Below, one piece after another: positions 3,166-58,727 of a DNA stretch of 64,000 nucleotides. Origin of the DNA: Clostridia bacterium (GTDB lineage: Bacteria; Bacillota; Clostridia; Christensenellales; CAG-917); contig JAZLBO010000020.1 in NCBI GenBank assembly GCA_045613765.1, positions 5,193 through 69,192 on the forward strand, given 5' to 3'. A program made the translations under genes and the position numbers. A model generated the notes under the pieces. It saw only the letters and a list, made by a program, of their open reading frames with translations. It was not told the DNA's origin and searched no databases. Each line of letters starts with the position of its first letter. Position 1 is the stretch's first letter.

Positions 3166-4320
3166 CTATTTTGCGACGTGTGAGTTTGCAAGTGCGTGTA
3201 TTTTTTCAAAGGGGTCGAGAAGGTTTGCAACAGATTCATTGTAGTTGGCAGCAGCAATGATGAAAGCAATATACTTTGAAATGTCTGCTTCAATAAACCA
3301 ACTGCAGTCCTTGAGTTCGGGGATTCTGTATGTAAGGTTGGTTGACACAACTGCATCAAAATAACCTTTTTCATAAGCGTCATTGAACTTTTGGACACCT
3401 TCAGTGAAAAGTGAGAAGGTTGCAGAAAGGAAAACTCTCTTTGCGCCCTTTTCTTTGAGTTCTTTTGCGAGTTTGATTATGCTGTCGCCTGTTGCAATCA
3501 TATCGTCTGCAACAAAGACGTCTTTGCCTGCTACGGGTGCGCCAATGTATTCGTGTGCGACAATGGGGTTTCTGCCATTAATGATGACGGAATAGTCACG
3601 GCGTTTGTAGAACATACCAAGGTCAAGACCCAAGACTGTTGCATAATAGACGTTTCTGCCCATTGCGCCTTCGTCGGGGGAAACACACATCAAGTGATCC
3701 TTGTCAAAGTTGATTGTGGGGAACTTCTTGACAAGTGCCTTGAGGATTTGATAGTTGGCAAAATAGTTGTCAAAGCCCATGAGAGGCACTGCGTTTTGGA
3801 CACGAGGATCGTGTGCATCAAATGTTATGATGTCACTTACGCCCATATTTTGAAGTTCTTGAAGCATAATTGCACAGTCAAGAGATTCTCTGCCGGCTTT
3901 TCTGTGTTGTCTGCCACCATAAAGCATGGGCATTATGACGGTGATTCTGCTGGGCTTTCCACCTGCTGCTGAAATTATGCGCTTAAGATCTGCAAAGTGT
4001 TCGTCTGGGGTAAGAGGAATTTTTTGTCCAAAAAAGTCAAAGGTGACACCGTGGTTGCCGGGATCACAAATAATGTAAAGGTCTTTGCCACGGAGGGTTT
4101 CATAAATCATACCCTTGGCATCGCCGTTTGTAAATCTGGGGCAATTTGCCTCAATCAAAAATGAGCCTTTTTTAATGCGAGCATTTTTTGGAGCTGACGA
4201 GTTGTACATGGCAACAAGTCGTTTGTCAATAAGTTCTGCAAGTTCCTTTGCTCCGGGCGTTGCAATAATCGCAAGTGGTGCAGAGGGTCTCTCTTCAAAA
4301 AGTGACAGTTCGGGTGACAC
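3166..4320 (-). CDS. prs: Ribose-phosphate pyrophosphokinase family protein (long form)
   Basis: 384 aa. PRPP-synthetase-like N-domain and a phosphoribosyltransferase PRPP loop (VFVADDMIATGDS). Confidence 0.75.
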   Translation of the reverse strand: MSPELSLFEERPSAPLAIIATPGAKELAELIDKRLVAMYNSSAPKNARIKKGSFLIEANCPRFTNGDAKGMIYETLRGKDLYIICDPGNHGVTFDFFGQKIPLTPDEHFADLKRIISAAGGKPSRITVIMPMLYGGRQHRKAGRESLDCAIMLQELQNMGVSDIITFDAHDPRVQNAVPLMGFDNYFANYQILKALVKKFPTINFDKDHLMCVSPDEGAMGRNVYYATVLGLDLGMFYKRRDYSVIINGRNPIVAHEYIGAPVAGKDVFVADDMIATGDSIIKLAKELKEKGAKRVFLSATFSLFTEGVQKFNDAYEKGYFDAVVSTNLTYRIPELKDCSWFIEADISKYIAFIIAAANYNESVANLLDPFEKIHALANSHVAK

Positions 4321-4499: not shown

Positions 4500-5627
4500 T
4501 TATGACAAAATTTCAACGAGAATATGATTCATAACGTCCATACCCTTGTCGTTGAGTGCAATTCTGCCATTTGAAATCGTGATAAAATCGGCAAATTTTT
4601 CTTTGAGAACATTTGCCTTTGAGCCAAGAATACTCTCGTCAATTCCGTCCTTTAGACGAAGTGCGAGCATCACTGTTTCTTCATGAATTTCATCATCTGT
4701 GAGAACTGTTGTTTCTCTTTCAAAATCAAAATAAGACAATGAATTTCGTGCATCTAACAGGTATTTTTCAATATTGTCGGTGTTTTTGAATCTTTCTTCA
4801 ACAACACCGTTTTCCTTTGATATTTTGGTCAAAGAACTCGCGTTCAAGCCCAAGCCAAGATACTCCTCTCTTGTCCAGTAGCCAGTGTTGTGGTTTGAGC
4901 GTTTTCCGTTTTTAGAGAAGTTGCTCACTTCGTATCTTTCAAAGCCCAAATCTTTCAATACATTGCAGGCATACTCAAAGAAATCAACTTGTTTGTCGGT
5001 GTCGGGCAAAATTATTTTGCCACTTTCAACAAGTTTTTCAAGAGGTGTGCCACTTTCAACGGATAACATATACACTGAAATATGGTCAACAAAAGGTGCA
5101 ACCAATTCAAGTTCTTCCTTGATTGATGCAAAGGTGTCATAAGGCAATCCAACAATAAAATCTACAGATAGATTGCCGAAATATTCCTTGATAAGACAAA
5201 TTTTGTCAAGGGCTGTTTGTCTATCGTGCACTCTGCCGATTGCCTTCAAATTGTCATCAAGCAATGATTGAACGCCAAGGCTGATTCTGTTTACGCCAAG
5301 ACTGCGCATCAACTGAAGTTTCTCTTTTGACACGCTTTCTGGATTACATTCAACTGTGATTTCTATGTTGTTTGAAAGGTTGAAGGAATTTGTTAAAGTG
5401 TTGAAAACACTTGAAAACTGCTCCAAATTGAGCAAAGATGGTGTGCCACCACCAAAATAAACAGACGTGATTTCACGGCTTGAAAATTCAGTGCCTGCAA
5501 GAGAGATTTCCTTGTTTAACCCGATTAGATAGTCATTTATTTTGTCACTATCGGCACAAGGAAAACTCTTGAAGTCACAGTATAAACATTTATTTTTACA
5601 AAATGGTATGTGAAGATAAAGTTTCAT
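4500..5627 (-). CDS. hemW: Radical SAM heme chaperone HemW (oxygen-independent coproporphyrinogen-III oxidase-like)
   Basis: 375 aa. N-terminal CxxxCxxC (HIPFCKNKCLYCDF), GGGTPS motif and a HemN_C-like tail. Located next to lepA, as in many Firmicutes. Confidence 0.85.
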   Translation of the reverse strand: MKLYLHIPFCKNKCLYCDFKSFPCADSDKINDYLIGLNKEISLAGTEFSSREITSVYFGGGTPSLLNLEQFSSVFNTLTNSFNLSNNIEITVECNPESVSKEKLQLMRSLGVNRISLGVQSLLDDNLKAIGRVHDRQTALDKICLIKEYFGNLSVDFIVGLPYDTFASIKEELELVAPFVDHISVYMLSVESGTPLEKLVESGKIILPDTDKQVDFFEYACNVLKDLGFERYEVSNFSKNGKRSNHNTGYWTREEYLGLGLNASSLTKISKENGVVEERFKNTDNIEKYLLDARNSLSYFDFERETTVLTDDEIHEETVMLALRLKDGIDESILGSKANVLKEKFADFITISNGRIALNDKGMDVMNHILVEILS

Positions 5628-54430: not shown

Positions 54431-55228
54431 TTATATCCACTTCACCGTTCCGTCAGTGGATATCGTACCCCATTTGCCGTCCTTCTTGACTTTTGCTTCT
54501 CCATTTTCAAAGGCTGTGGCTGCATCATATTCAAAGGGGATCACAAGTGTGTTTTCCTTGTTGATATAGCCAAACTTATCCCTTTTTGCAACTGCGGCAA
54601 GACCTTCAGAGAAACTCATTGCAGTTTCGTATTCAAAAGGTATGACAACGTTGTTGTCACTGTCAATGTACCCACACTTTTCATCAAGTTCTACTGATGC
54701 AAGTCCATCACGGAAGCAAAATACTTCATCATAGGTTGCAGGTATGACAGTTTTCATGCCATCATAGAAACCCCATTTGCCACCCTTTTGAATCTTGCGC
54801 CAATCGTTGACTGACAAAGGTTCATTGAGTTTTGCAGGCTTTTCAGGTTGCTCTTTTTGCACCTTTTCTTGCTTGCCCTTTTGTCCTTTGCCCTCTTGCT
54901 TTTCAACTTTGCGAGGCTCGTTTTTGGGTGCTTTGGGGACGGCAGGTCTAAATTCCATGCCCTGTGACTTCAATGCATCTTTGAGTTCAAAGAGCATCTT
55001 CTTGTTGAAGCCTTGCACCTTGAACATATCTCTTTCAGTGCGAATACAGACGTCGCCTGCAGTGTTGATCTTGTTTTTTGCAAGAAGTTCTGCAGTTTTG
55101 ACGCTCACGCCTATATTTTCAAGGACGAGATTCATCTTTTCTGCAGGATAAAGATTGCTTTGAGTTTCTGTGTTTTGTTGCTTTGAAACTGATTTGTTTC
55201 TGTTGTGATAATAAAATTTCTTTGCCAT
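54431..55228 (-). CDS. WG/KWG-repeat protein with an N-terminal RpoA-CTD-like helix-hairpin-helix segment
   Basis: 265 aa. Contains ELLAKNKINTAGDV...VQGFNKKMLFELKDAL (alpha-CTD-like) and a Lys/Glu-rich linker. The C-terminal repeats are GKWGFYDG, KCGYIDSDNNVVIPFEYE, KFGYINKENTLVIPFEYD and GKWGTIS. Confidence 0.7.
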   Translation of the reverse strand: MAKKFYYHNRNKSVSKQQNTETQSNLYPAEKMNLVLENIGVSVKTAELLAKNKINTAGDVCIRTERDMFKVQGFNKKMLFELKDALKSQGMEFRPAVPKAPKNEPRKVEKQEGKGQKGKQEKVQKEQPEKPAKLNEPLSVNDWRKIQKGGKWGFYDGMKTVIPATYDEVFCFRDGLASVELDEKCGYIDSDNNVVIPFEYETAMSFSEGLAAVAKRDKFGYINKENTLVIPFEYDAATAFENGEAKVKKDGKWGTISTDGTVKWI

Positions 55229-57903: not shown

Positions 57904-57937
57904 TTTTTCACAAATTTATTTATTTTGTGTTAAATGC

Positions 57938-57966
57938 TTGCTTTTTATATTTCTATGATATATAAT
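57938..57966 (+). promoter_or_regulatory. Sigma-A type promoter for tRNA-Pro
   Basis: TTGCTT, a 17-nt spacer and TATAAT, ending 11 nt before the mature tRNA 5' end. Confidence 0.65.
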
Positions 57967-57977
57967 AGCAACGCTAT

Positions 57978-58054
57978 ATGGGTGTGGCGCAGTTTGGTAG
58001 CGCGCTTGAATGGGGTTCAAGAGGTCGGGGGTTCAAGTCCCTTCACCCATACCA
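57978..58054 (+). tRNA. tRNA-Pro (anticodon GGG), CCA-encoded
   Basis: Manual cloverleaf. Acceptor ATGGGTG/CACCCAT, D arm GCGC-AGTTTGGTA-GCGC, anticodon arm CTTGA-ATGGGGT-TCAAG, variable loop AGGTC, T arm GGGGG-TTCAAGT-CCCTT, discriminator A and CCA. Confidence 0.88.
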
Positions 58055-58055
58055 G

Positions 58056-58093
58056 AAAAAGACTCAGGATTGTAATCAATCTTGAGTCTTTTT
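58056..58093 (+). terminator. Intrinsic terminator after tRNA-Pro
   Basis: AAAAAGACTCA...TGAGTC followed by a T5 run. Confidence 0.7.
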
Positions 58094-58100
58094 CAATTAT

Positions 58101-58267
58101 ATCCGCCTTTGACGGAATAAATCCACATCAGTGGATGAAATCGCTCCGCGATGAAATCTACCTAATCGGCAGGTTTGAAAAGGTGGATATGATTTCATCT
58201 GAGGTGACACAACGAAGATTTCATCCAAACCTGTTTGGATTTCATCCTGCAAAAGCAGGATTTCATT
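58101..58267. repeat. Array of ATC...GAT palindromic hairpins joined by a constant 9-nt junction
   Basis: Hairpins: ATCCAC-atca-GTGGAT (58121-58136), ATCGC-tcc-GCGAT (58140-58152), ATCCAAAC-ct-GTTTGGAT (58223-58240) and ATCCTGC-aaaa-GCAGGAT (58244-58261), plus weaker ones. The junction GATGAAATC occurs at 58134 and 58150. Its reverse complement GATTTCAT(C) occurs at 58191, 58217, 58238 and 58259. Confidence 0.65.
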
Positions 58268-58316
58268 ATTGCTTTTCAATAGATTTTGTACTATACTTGT
58301 AAAAGAGGTGACTATT

Positions 58317-58661
58317 ATGACAGAAAACAAACTCGCAGATTTGTCTATAGATTTTGCTGTTAGCGTTTTAAAATTGACAGGTAGCATCAAAGGACACTAC
58401 TCTCTTGTAAATCAATTAGAACGCAGTGCAACATCTATCGGTGCAAATATTCGTGAAGCAAAATACGCTCATAGCAAGGCAGACTTTATATCCAAACTTC
58501 AAATTTCTTTAAAGGAATGTTATGAAACTGAATATTGGCTTGAGATTATGCAAAGAGCCGAAATAATAAATGACGACAAATCTAAAGCACTTATGCACGA
58601 TTGTGGCTCCATCAGAAAAATCCTCATTTCTTCCATAAACACTGCCAAAACAAATTCATAA
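58317..58661 (+). CDS. Four-helix-bundle protein (23S rRNA intervening-sequence protein / Avd-like family)
   Basis: Start at ATG 58317 with an AGAGGTG RBS. The sequence LERSATSIGANIREA...FISKLQISLKECYETEYWLEI is typical of the TIGR02436/PF05635 family. Confidence 0.85.
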   Translation: MTENKLADLSIDFAVSVLKLTGSIKGHYSLVNQLERSATSIGANIREAKYAHSKADFISKLQISLKECYETEYWLEIMQRAEIINDDKSKALMHDCGSIRKILISSINTAKTNS

Positions 58662-58690: not shown

Positions 58691-58727
58691 AAAAAAACGG
58701 ACTATATTCAGTCCGTTTTATTTTTTT
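58691..58727. terminator. Bidirectional intrinsic terminator
   Basis: A7 run, then stem CGGACT/AGTCCG, then TTTTATTTTTTT. Confidence 0.75.

Follow-up and report, generated by a model that had tools for sequence, protein, structure and literature searches.

The 64,000-nucleotide stretch of DNA analyzed here, positions 5,193 to 69,192 of contig JAZLBO010000020.1 from a Clostridia bacterium (hereafter the window; all window coordinates are positions of this whole stretch), carries a chain of small hairpins between a tRNA-Pro gene and a gene encoding a four-helix-bundle protein. We identify this chain, at 58095-58267, as a somewhat degenerate copy of a hairpin array that is conserved in gut Clostridia, spans approximately 170 bp and has dyad symmetry. 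This cis-acting structural module begins directly behind a symmetric terminator, where a tRNA or transfer-messenger RNA (tmRNA) unit, or a small accessory gene, has its 3' boundary. In the clade to which the window copy belongs, the last linker of the array abuts the -35 element of a strong predicted promoter for the four-helix-bundle gene, which belongs to the Avd-related family PF05635.

The array consists of seven hairpins, A to G, set among four forward and four reverse linkers. The forward linker words are of the form …AAATC or GATGAAATC, and the reverse word is GATTTCAT. The forward, terminator-proximal half (58095-58194, + strand; defined by sequence, inverted repeat I4 and the + strand fold) opens at 58095 with the degenerate linker L0, AATTATATC, and contains the weak hairpin A (58102-58116), linker L1, AATAAATC, between A and B, the perfect hairpins B (ATCCACatcaGTGGAT, arms ATCCAC/GTGGAT, 58121-58136) and C (ATCGCtccGCGAT, arms ATCGC/GCGAT, 58140-58152), and the weak hairpin D (58156-58174). 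Linkers L2 and L3, which flank hairpin C, are exact copies of GATGAAATC at 58134 and 58150 on the + strand. The reverse, promoter-proximal half (58191-58267, - strand; defined by sequence and 9-mer count) has linkers of the form GATTTCAT(C) at 58191, 58217, 58238 and 58259, spaced 26, 21 and 21 bp apart; the first three read GATTTCATC, the reverse complement of the forward word, and the last reads GATTTCAT. They separate hairpin E (58197-58219), weak and degenerate here, from the perfect hairpins F (ATCCAAACctGTTTGGAT, arms ATCCAAAC/GTTTGGAT, 58223-58240) and G (ATCCTGCaaaaGCAGGAT, arms ATCCTGC/GCAGGAT, 58244-58261). A long-range, 16-nt inverted repeat (I4) joins the first segment, S1 (58095-58110), to the distal segment S3, AAAGGTGGATATGATT (58179-58194), with 88% complementarity; its two mismatches are both G·T as read on the + strand. 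The S1:S3 stem closes the forward half, and the predicted + strand fold places hairpins B to D inside it.

An earlier note on this DNA, made from the letters alone, had described variable hairpins on a constant junction, two halves facing each other, and a 21-bp spacing of the last three junction copies. The linkers at 58217, 58238 and 58259 have exactly that spacing, the order of forward and reverse linkers confirms the opposed halves, and the hairpin chain proved real by three measures: an excess of the 9-mer, the folding scores and the pairing of hairpin arms in 89 homologous arrays (described below). The note's start at 58101 has to be moved to 58095, directly after the tRNA terminator, and its otherwise accurate description missed the degenerate linkers AATTATATC and AATAAATC and the 16-nt long-range inverted repeat. 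Ten copies of the GATGAAATC 9-mer are present in the window, where 1.1 would be expected, and none of 100 shuffles had as many; five of the ten copies fall within 113 bp. The region 58055-58275 folds much better than its dinucleotide shuffles, with z = -7.5 (+ strand) and z = -6.7 (- strand). The other five 9-mers (7764, 13158, 24526, 38626 and 50575; about one is expected per whole window) are isolated, and none belongs to an array. Two open reading frames (ORFs) overlapping the array (57934-58302 plus and 58097-58390 minus) lack coding conservation, in keeping with the note's view of them as artefacts, and homologous arrays differ by hairpin-length indels and compensatory changes.

The signals on either side of the array are closely packed. 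The tRNA-Pro(GGG) gene, with CCA encoded, occupies 57978-58054 on the + strand (ARAGORN; Rfam tRNA, 61.2 bits), behind a putative promoter read from the sequence at 57938-57966 (+ strand; -35 TTGCTT, 17-nt spacer, -10 TATAAT). Immediately 3' of the tRNA lies a 40-nt perfect palindrome (58055-58094; inverted repeat I1) composed of GAAAAAG, an 18-bp stem and CTTTTTC, and the same hairpin type directly follows the CCA in related loci. Its form suggests a terminator, and the combination of A-tract and T-tract suggests action in both directions. Beyond the array, the predicted promoter of the four-helix-bundle gene (58269-58297, + strand; -35 TTGCTT, 17-nt spacer, -10 TATACT) begins 2 nt past the last linker; the octamer TTGCTTTT is common to this putative -35 region and that of the tRNA (58269-58276 and 57938-57945; repeat D8). 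The ribosome-binding site AGAGGTG and the gene together span 58304-58661 on the + strand, with the ATG at 58317, 50 nt from the array end, and a bidirectional terminator-like hairpin detected by a terminator scan on both strands (58694-58719) ends the unit. The gene (58317-58661) encodes 114 amino acids and is a clear member of PF05635 (91.2 bits, E 6e-26, residues 4-104; cut-off 33.8) and of TIGR02436 (102 bits; cut-off 24), both scores exceeding the curated cut-offs. Its closest solved structure is PDB 2RLD (E 9e-25), an entry with five chains. Thousands of homologues are found at E < 1e-10, the exact sequence has no database record, and a PADLOC search returned no anti-phage defence match. 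No repeats of the gene region were found in the window.

How general is the association between array and gene? A scan of one genome per species returned more than 532 loci carrying the gene, of which we took the best 80. These come from uncultured Clostridia of animal and human guts (Oscillospiraceae, Acutalibacteraceae, Christensenellaceae and Faecousia), and the array module lies upstream of the gene, within the approximately 260 nt that precede the ATG, in all 80. A crude automatic array test is passed by 76 of the 80, the remaining four being variant or rearranged arrays. The link to the four-helix-bundle gene proposed in the earlier note thus extends to essentially every close homologue retrieved. 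The module is ordered as CCA, symmetric terminator, TTTTCAACTAAATCC…, forward hairpins with (A/G)TGAAATC joints, GGAC GGATTTAATTTCATC, reverse hairpins with GATTTCATC joints, GATTTCATT(GAAAA), a TG-extended -10 promoter, AAGAGGTGAT and ATG. A strong gene promoter is predicted at the same position in approximately 72 of 82 homologous loci, its -10 ending 18-24 nt before the ATG; the same 82 loci contain no conserved - strand promoter, the best scores there lying at background and at scattered positions. ARAGORN finds a same-strand tRNA (13 isotypes) or tmRNA in 63 of the 82, ending about 255 nt before the ATG (224-275 nt in most), and of the loci without a full tRNA, several lie on truncated contigs or keep just the 3' fragment of a tRNA. 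Adjacency to a tRNA is therefore a conserved rather than an incidental feature of these loci, and it recurs in arrays found by their DNA pattern (below). Scaffold gaps (N runs) fall inside apparent array duplications in two loci (L012, 2810-2909, and upstream in L082); array repeats probably break short-read assembly, and tandem copies may therefore be under-counted in metagenome assemblies.

The usual form of the array has four forward and four reverse linkers: L0 is AACTAAATC, L1 is G(G/A)ATAAATC or GGTGAAATC, L2 and L3 are GATGAAATC, R1 lies inside GGATTTAATTTCATC, R2 and R3 are GATTTCATC, and R4 is GATTTCATT. Among 92 aligned arrays, linker spacing ranges from 16 to 26 bp and tracks hairpin length; helical phasing is therefore not conserved. 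What is conserved is pairing. In 89 arrays the inner stem arms of hairpins A, B, C, E, F and G, inside the ATC/GAT feet, find their complement in the same array and not in others, with 15-28 distinct arm sequences at each hairpin position. Three or more inner pairs form with the array's own arm in 91% of arrays for hairpin G and 89% for hairpin B, against 22% and 16%, respectively, when the arm is taken from another array. The S1:S3 pairing is found in 134 distinct arrays with 63 different pair combinations, and RNAalifold reports compensatory changes in it (G-C 65 versus A-U 22 at one pair, C-G 45 versus U-A 39 at another) as well as in hairpins B, C and G. Because the first segment can form local hairpin A as well as S1:S3, two mutually exclusive pairings are conserved.

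The loops and mismatches are mirrored between the halves. Forward-half loops on the + strand are TTC (109 of 347), TTGC, TGC, TTAC and TTTC, which on the - strand read GAA, GCAA, GCA, GTAA and GAAA; reverse-half loops on the + strand are GAA, GTA, GCA and GTTA. The loop-closing pair is mostly C-G in both. Inner-stem mismatches in the reverse half are nearly all G·A on the + strand, in tandem (101 cells); the forward half instead has C·T on the + strand (16 cells), equivalent to G·A on the - strand. The element is therefore dyad-symmetric at the duplex level, both strands reading alike 5' to 3'. Hairpins with C-G-closed G-N-A loops or with G·A pairs in tandem are known for their stability, in DNA and in RNA alike. 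G·T is nearly absent from the inner stems (2 in approximately 1190 pairs, or about 0.2%), whereas the terminator hairpins of related genome loci have about 3%: the array stems lack the G·U signature of ordinary RNA helices. The only common wobble affects the second pair of the stem foot, where linker GAT becomes GGT, and is mirrored in opposite sense between the halves (forward half, 34-45 G·T versus 3-4 A·C; reverse half, in the mirror sense, 14 versus 1). An attempt to name the transcribed strand from G·U versus A·C counts was dropped, as the signal sits almost entirely at one linker position; since it is mirrored between the halves, no strand is chosen. Register-specific pairing of forward with reverse linkers, judged by whether G/C variants of a forward linker recur in the reverse linker nested with it, was likewise rejected: L2/L3 versus R1 gives p ~1e-5, driven by a few lineages, and L1 versus R3 is not significant. 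Taken as a whole, the architecture suggests an element with dyad symmetry that works as a folded strand, and not an ordinary small RNA or a phased operator.

One half of the element has been seen before. In an Rfam scan at a permissive threshold, which the earlier note had suggested, the only relevant matches besides the tRNA were two to the Gut-1 RNA motif (RF01706), one per half: 58094-58162 on the + strand (28.7 bits) and 58213-58281 on the - strand (34.0 bits), both below the gathering cut-off of 50 bits. Several homologous arrays, some of them gene-linked, exceed this cut-off (L002, 57.7; L239, 52.7 and 51.2; L060, 50.6; L236, 56.5; L217, 54.7; and others), as do 7 of 20 further arrays found by pattern. 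Since arrays that pass align with the window copy end to end, we regard the latter as a degenerate Gut-1 homologue. Like Gut-1, it has three or four short hairpins with AU…(G/A)U stems and GAA joints within a constant (G)UGAAAU word, and both derive from uncultured gut bacteria; the three successive hairpins, AU…(G/A)U feet and GAA within UGAAAU that define the motif are all present in the window. In the alignment to the Gut-1 consensus, hairpins B and C (+ strand) and F and G (- strand) are perfect, and A, D and E are weak. Gut-1 was described from human-gut metagenomes only and rated "certainly" RNA on covariation; it was considered not cis-regulatory, was assigned no function and was treated as a free-standing noncoding RNA (Weinberg et al. 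2010; PMC2864571).

The flanks of the Weinberg seed alignment run in the order tRNA 3' end or stop codon, terminator, GUUAUAUUCGCC, hairpins with GUGAUAU or GUGAAAU joints, then, further on, GGCGAAUAUA complementary to the first segment, and an AUAUCAC-joined hairpin array. The Rfam model, which is limited to the terminator-proximal half, therefore represents half of a mirror-symmetric element, and the array is in that half already known, as the 2010 motif. Gut-1 has not been described with a mirrored half, a long-range closing stem, a site after a tRNA or tmRNA terminator, several linker words or a link to PF05635. In one seed (hgutS7_s7_168049), with the GAAAUC linker word, a second terminator directly follows the forward half and there is no reverse half; half-arrays between two terminators therefore exist too.

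Searching metagenome contigs, as the note had proposed, with the three-word pattern GATGAAATC-N-GATGAAATC-N-ATTTCATC yielded at least 120 loci. Among the matches listed, 75 arrays have enough upstream sequence to judge; a full tRNA precedes 32 of them, and CCA plus terminator precedes 44. Phage origin was considered and rejected: the three-word pattern found only two viral contigs, and a two-word scan of viral contigs gave at least 120 stretches with no real array among the matches listed. One viral contig carries an array beyond the prophage attachment site, on the host side, still joined to a displaced tRNA 3' fragment. In L272 (846-860 and 1037-1053) and L215 (about 503-540), the last approximately 19 nt of the tRNA, from T-arm to CCA, are directly repeated; the repeats enclose an insert or prophage with an integrase gene, and the array stays on the displaced 3' fragment. 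These two cases are ordinary integrase-type insertions into array-carrying tRNAs. Retention of the array on displaced tRNA fragments (the viral contig and L272) indicates that it is the native flank of the tRNA.

Anchoring on the neighboring SH3-domain protein allowed the orthologous tRNA-Pro locus to be compared in four relatives. The one with the most similar SH3 protein (L337, 80% identical) has a window-like layout after tRNA-Pro and terminator, with the gene present. A second (L339, 58%) has a GAAATC array with another hairpin set, the gene, and then different cargo (LigT-like, acetyltransferases); its array is nearly identical to a unit that follows the 3' fragment of another tRNA (L019). 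The remaining two lack the gene and still have arrays, the outcome of the comparison with gene-less relatives that the note had asked for: one with the same architecture and the linker word ATGAAGC/GCTTCAT (L338, 60%), the other degenerate, with GATTACAT linkers (L340, 46%). The genes to the right of the array differ among these loci. The array is thus a long-lived resident of the tRNA-Pro flank, where either both halves switch linker word together or a paralogue takes the place of the entire array. An integration-site relic, one of the note's candidate roles, fits poorly with an array kept at a locus whose SH3 neighbor is only 46-80% identical.

What might such an element do? Our tentative proposal, the first-ranked of those considered and one we would not call probable, is that the array is a hairpin scaffold at a transcription-unit boundary, recognized by the four-helix-bundle protein and serving as a boundary and autoregulatory element. 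The array would act folded and single-stranded, as DNA or as RNA, presenting seven short, perfectly paired hairpins in series on a constant 7-9-nt linker, with the long-range stem closing the left half. An oligomeric nucleic-acid-binding protein would read this scaffold at the constant linker and the stem-foot junctions. The prime candidate for the reader is the adjacent four-helix-bundle protein, because its family forms pentamers and its relative Avd from diversity-generating retroelements (DGRs) binds nucleic acid. Through binding, the protein might mark or insulate the point where the heavily transcribed tRNA unit gives way to the variable genes on its right, and might feed back on the abutting promoter. 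We rank this proposal first because of the complete gene-to-array linkage, the fixed abutment of linker and -35, and the nucleic-acid-binding character of the family.

Several observations weigh against the scaffold proposal. Its main weakness is that genomes carry several linker words with no adjacent four-helix-bundle gene. ATGAAG[CT], AATGATG and GTGAAGT share contigs with GAAATC arrays, ATGAAGC, AATGATGT and GATTACAT also occur, and no four-helix-bundle gene was seen beside arrays with other linker words among those examined; one protein reading one word therefore cannot explain all arrays. Even within the pattern-found GAAATC arrays, the gene is adjacent in only 25 of the 84 with enough downstream sequence, among the matches listed. 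Every gene of the clade has an array and a minority of arrays have the gene, so the arrays outlive the gene and are more closely tied to the tRNA and terminator; several gene-less arrays retain a truncated gene remnant (L218, L305 and L285). The strand signals disagree as well: the second-pair U·G favors the inward-reading strands, and the G·A mismatches and G-N-A loops favor the outward-reading ones. PF05635 proteins are not known to bind specific sequences. Finally, the window copy itself is eroded, with hairpins A, D and E weak.

Could the array instead encode a structured noncoding RNA, as the Gut-1 annotation implies? It would be a single RNA made by tRNA read-through, or two convergent RNAs each starting with a Gut-1-type half, and would serve as a small RNA, a protein sponge or a processing signal. 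The Gut-1 matches on both strands, the rating by Weinberg et al., the very stable folds, and a second stem pair that tends to U·G when each half is read in its Gut-1 orientation all agree with this. So do the A-tract of the symmetric terminator, which suggests transcription arriving from both sides, and the seed whose forward half stands directly before its own terminator. Nevertheless, no promoter lies between terminator and array, no conserved promoter exists on the - strand, and the inner stems have essentially none of the G·U found in neighboring terminators. Reverse-complemented units are not equivalent in RNA, leaving the dyad symmetry without reason in a single transcript, and hairpin E has tandem C·U mismatches in the Gut-1 orientation. 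We consider an RNA product possible but unlikely, and rank it below the scaffold. The multi-hairpin RNA proposed in the earlier note keeps that share of probability, weakened by the dyad symmetry and the near-absence of inner-stem G·U.

Also ranked below the scaffold, and of similarly low likelihood, is a role as a recombination or mobility site. The array would then bound exchangeable units (terminator, array, four-helix-bundle gene and cargo) at stable-RNA flanks, its folded hairpins being recognized by a recombinase encoded elsewhere, in the manner of attC sites or of rRNA intervening sequences that carry PF05635. Near-identical units follow different tRNAs (tRNA-Pro in L339, another tRNA's 3' fragment in L019), one terminator and array type follows Leu, Ser and Gly tRNAs, and similarity begins exactly at the CCA. 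Two loci (L060 and L239) have cassette-like strings of gene, terminator and array, the genes being small accessory ones such as DUF4240; elsewhere tandem arrays occur with direct repeats of terminator and first segment, which flank array plus gene (L041, L044, L050 and L070). The variable genes to the right of the orthologous array, the features reminiscent of single-stranded DNA (no G·T, C-G-closed G-N-A loops, tandem G·A) and the known presence of PF05635 genes within rRNA insertions fit as well, as does the second-clade PF05635 gene of L336, which lies between inverted heptamer repeats shortly before a tRNA. Against a recombination site, no recombinase is consistently near in the 2.5-5 kb flanks examined. 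The breakpoints in L041, L050 and L026 lie at different positions, and the rearrangements therefore do not look site-specific. No empty site was found at the orthologous locus, where the array is present even without cargo (L338). Both halves always carry the same linker word, so there is no exchange inside the array. A variant that we rate lower still is that the arrays are a new class of dyad-symmetric hairpin sites in single-stranded DNA, bounding exchangeable accessory-gene units after tRNA and tmRNA genes, with the Avd-related protein itself binding or mobilizing them.

The L336 gene just mentioned deserves description. It is a second, more divergent PF05635 gene (MNNPIEEKSFGFAVRIV…) on the - strand, approximately 420 nt before the tRNA-Leu that itself precedes the array of that locus. 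Tandem heptamers, ATTGCAA ATTGCAA ATGGCAA ATTGAAA, stand before it and their reverse complement after it. The arrangement resembles an intervening sequence in a tRNA operon leader.

Less well still does the array fit an intergenic repeat of the kind represented by repetitive extragenic palindromic (REP) sequences, bacterial interspersed mosaic elements (BIMEs) or miniature inverted-repeat transposable elements, and we think such an origin rather improbable. The array would be self-propagating or structurally maintained, would accumulate after terminators with a possible topological or insulating benefit, and would have no specific tie to the four-helix-bundle protein. Its location after terminators between transcription units, its many diverged copies with several linker words per contig, and its persistence after gene loss are as expected. 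Its two ends form an imperfect inverted repeat, commonly with TTTTCAACTAAATC facing GATTTCATTGAAAA, which gives an outward-facing -35, and templated correction in DNA palindromes could yield perfect stems without intermediates and without selection. REP/BIME, pneumococcal BOX and neisserial Correia elements are likewise intergenic, mosaic palindrome/linker arrays after gene 3' ends, some with outward-facing promoter elements. REP palindromes, however, are conserved in sequence, whereas here the stems vary and the linkers alone are constant. Copies within a genome are diverged rather than near-identical, and they hold a highly specific position, directly after CCA and terminator, with persistence at an orthologous site. 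Every gene of the clade has its array, with a promoter that follows directly on the last linker at constant distance. The array thus lacks the sequence-conserved palindromes that, together with a RAYT transposase, mark REP/BIME; no RAYT-type or other transposase was noted in the examined flanks, which were not searched systematically.

A classical double-stranded operator or iteron array, in which a conventional regulator binds the 9-bp words and the hairpins are incidental, is very improbable: repeated 9-mers in two opposed groups do reach the -35, and three window copies are 21 bp apart, but constant spacing and self-sufficient sites are not what the 92 aligned arrays display (16-26 bp), the intervening sequences are selected for self-complementarity, arrays exist without a downstream promoter, and the four-helix bundle is not known as a sequence-specific double-stranded DNA-binding fold. 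The operator/iteron role listed in the earlier note accordingly fits poorly, as it is hairpin pairing and not inter-site sequence that is conserved. Readings of the linker word as a DnaA box, cre, CodY, Fur, Rex or Chi-like site were dropped, since the match was partial and the other linker words did not fit. Tandem weak terminators (hairpin plus UUUCAU) suit the GAAATC word and not other linker words, and were not adopted. In the GAAATC family a U-rich ATTTCAT follows every reverse-half hairpin, other linker words not being U-rich, and in the window hairpin G with TTCATTATTG (58244-58270) was flagged as terminator-like on the + strand by the terminator scan. A type III toxin-antitoxin (ToxI-like) locus was rejected as well: the units differ and are mirrored, a promoter lies between array and gene, and the protein is PF05635 with no PADLOC match.

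Further parallels among known systems involve PF05635 itself, of which Avd is a structural relative. Members of this very large family that are borne in rRNA share with the window gene an adjacent stable-RNA gene and a highly structured repeat region nearby; the window gene differs in lying outside rRNA, with its own predicted promoter and terminator. In rRNA intervening sequences, a small four-helix-bundle ORF is likewise combined with inverted-repeat structure in a stable-RNA operon, with patchy site distribution. There the ORF lies within the stem-loop and the whole element is excised from rRNA, whereas in the window the entire array precedes the ORF and is no part of the mature tRNA. No role outside DGRs is established for the family, and the window locus is not a DGR, since it has no reverse transcriptase and no template/variable repeat pair. 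The absence of a nearby reverse transcriptase, stated in the note, was borne out by annotation of the neighboring genes within approximately 4-5 kb, among which there is also no unexplained ORF of that size.

Integron attC sites resemble the array in their conservation of structure over sequence, in their complementary halves with constant end words and in their location at the 3' end of small same-orientation accessory genes, and the mismatches and loops would suit folding as single-stranded DNA. They differ in being one bulged hairpin rather than a multi-hairpin array, and the cassettes here have their own promoters and terminators. The attC core words (RYYYAAC … GTTRRRY) are absent from the arrays; the gene order in L060 and L239 is cassette-like. 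No integron integrase was seen in the 2.5-5 kb flanks, where the only integrase is that of the unrelated prophage at the displaced tRNA fragment of L215. Integrons are not known in this bacterial group.

Our literature search on Gut-1 or PF05635 function returned nothing beyond the 2010 catalogue and statements that the protein family is uncharacterised. The mirrored architecture, closing stem, tRNA/tmRNA-flank specificity, family of linker words, PF05635 linkage and mismatch spectrum appear to be undescribed in the literature searched. Gut-1 has stood in Rfam since 2010 without a function, a cultivated host or a genomic context. The window locus and its relatives join Gut-1 to PF05635, and place the two together where tRNA and tmRNA genes end; they reveal the catalogued motif as half of a larger mirror-symmetric element, with a mismatch and loop pattern unusual for RNA (G·U nearly missing, G-N-A loops and tandem G·A both mirrored). 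Two orphans thereby become directly testable. If the array acts at the DNA level, as a boundary or in recombination, abundant gut bacteria would have in it a new kind of genome-organizing signal. If it is a site in single-stranded DNA that the Avd-related protein binds or mobilizes, it would give the orphan PF05635, including the rRNA intervening-sequence proteins, a first function outside DGRs, in a lineage without integrons.

Some features of individual relatives are worth recording. A conserved segment of approximately 100 nt, …CATCATCGCCAAGGGATAAGT…GGATCGATTT…GCATCACAAG, occurs in L060 (about 1090-1185 and 2113-2250) and L070 (about 3440-3570). It precedes the terminator of several non-tRNA arrays and ends in CAAG, compared with CCA(A)G in tRNA-linked arrays; an Rfam search with it gave no match. 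In L236 (about 1380-1450) the loop of the last hairpin of the GAAATC array holds an insertion of approximately 50 nt, itself hairpin-forming, and a second array with AATGATGT linkers lies approximately 300 nt beyond the first. In the window, the genes within approximately 4-5 kb encode a WG-repeat protein, the SH3-domain protein, tRNA-Pro, a small membrane ORF, FeoB, FeoA and a TetR-like ORF. The WG-repeat protein (54431-55228, - strand; 265 amino acids) combines an N-terminal domain like the C-terminal domain of RNA polymerase alpha with WG-containing beta repeats, and its gene is paired with the divergent SH3-domain gene in all four syntenic relatives.

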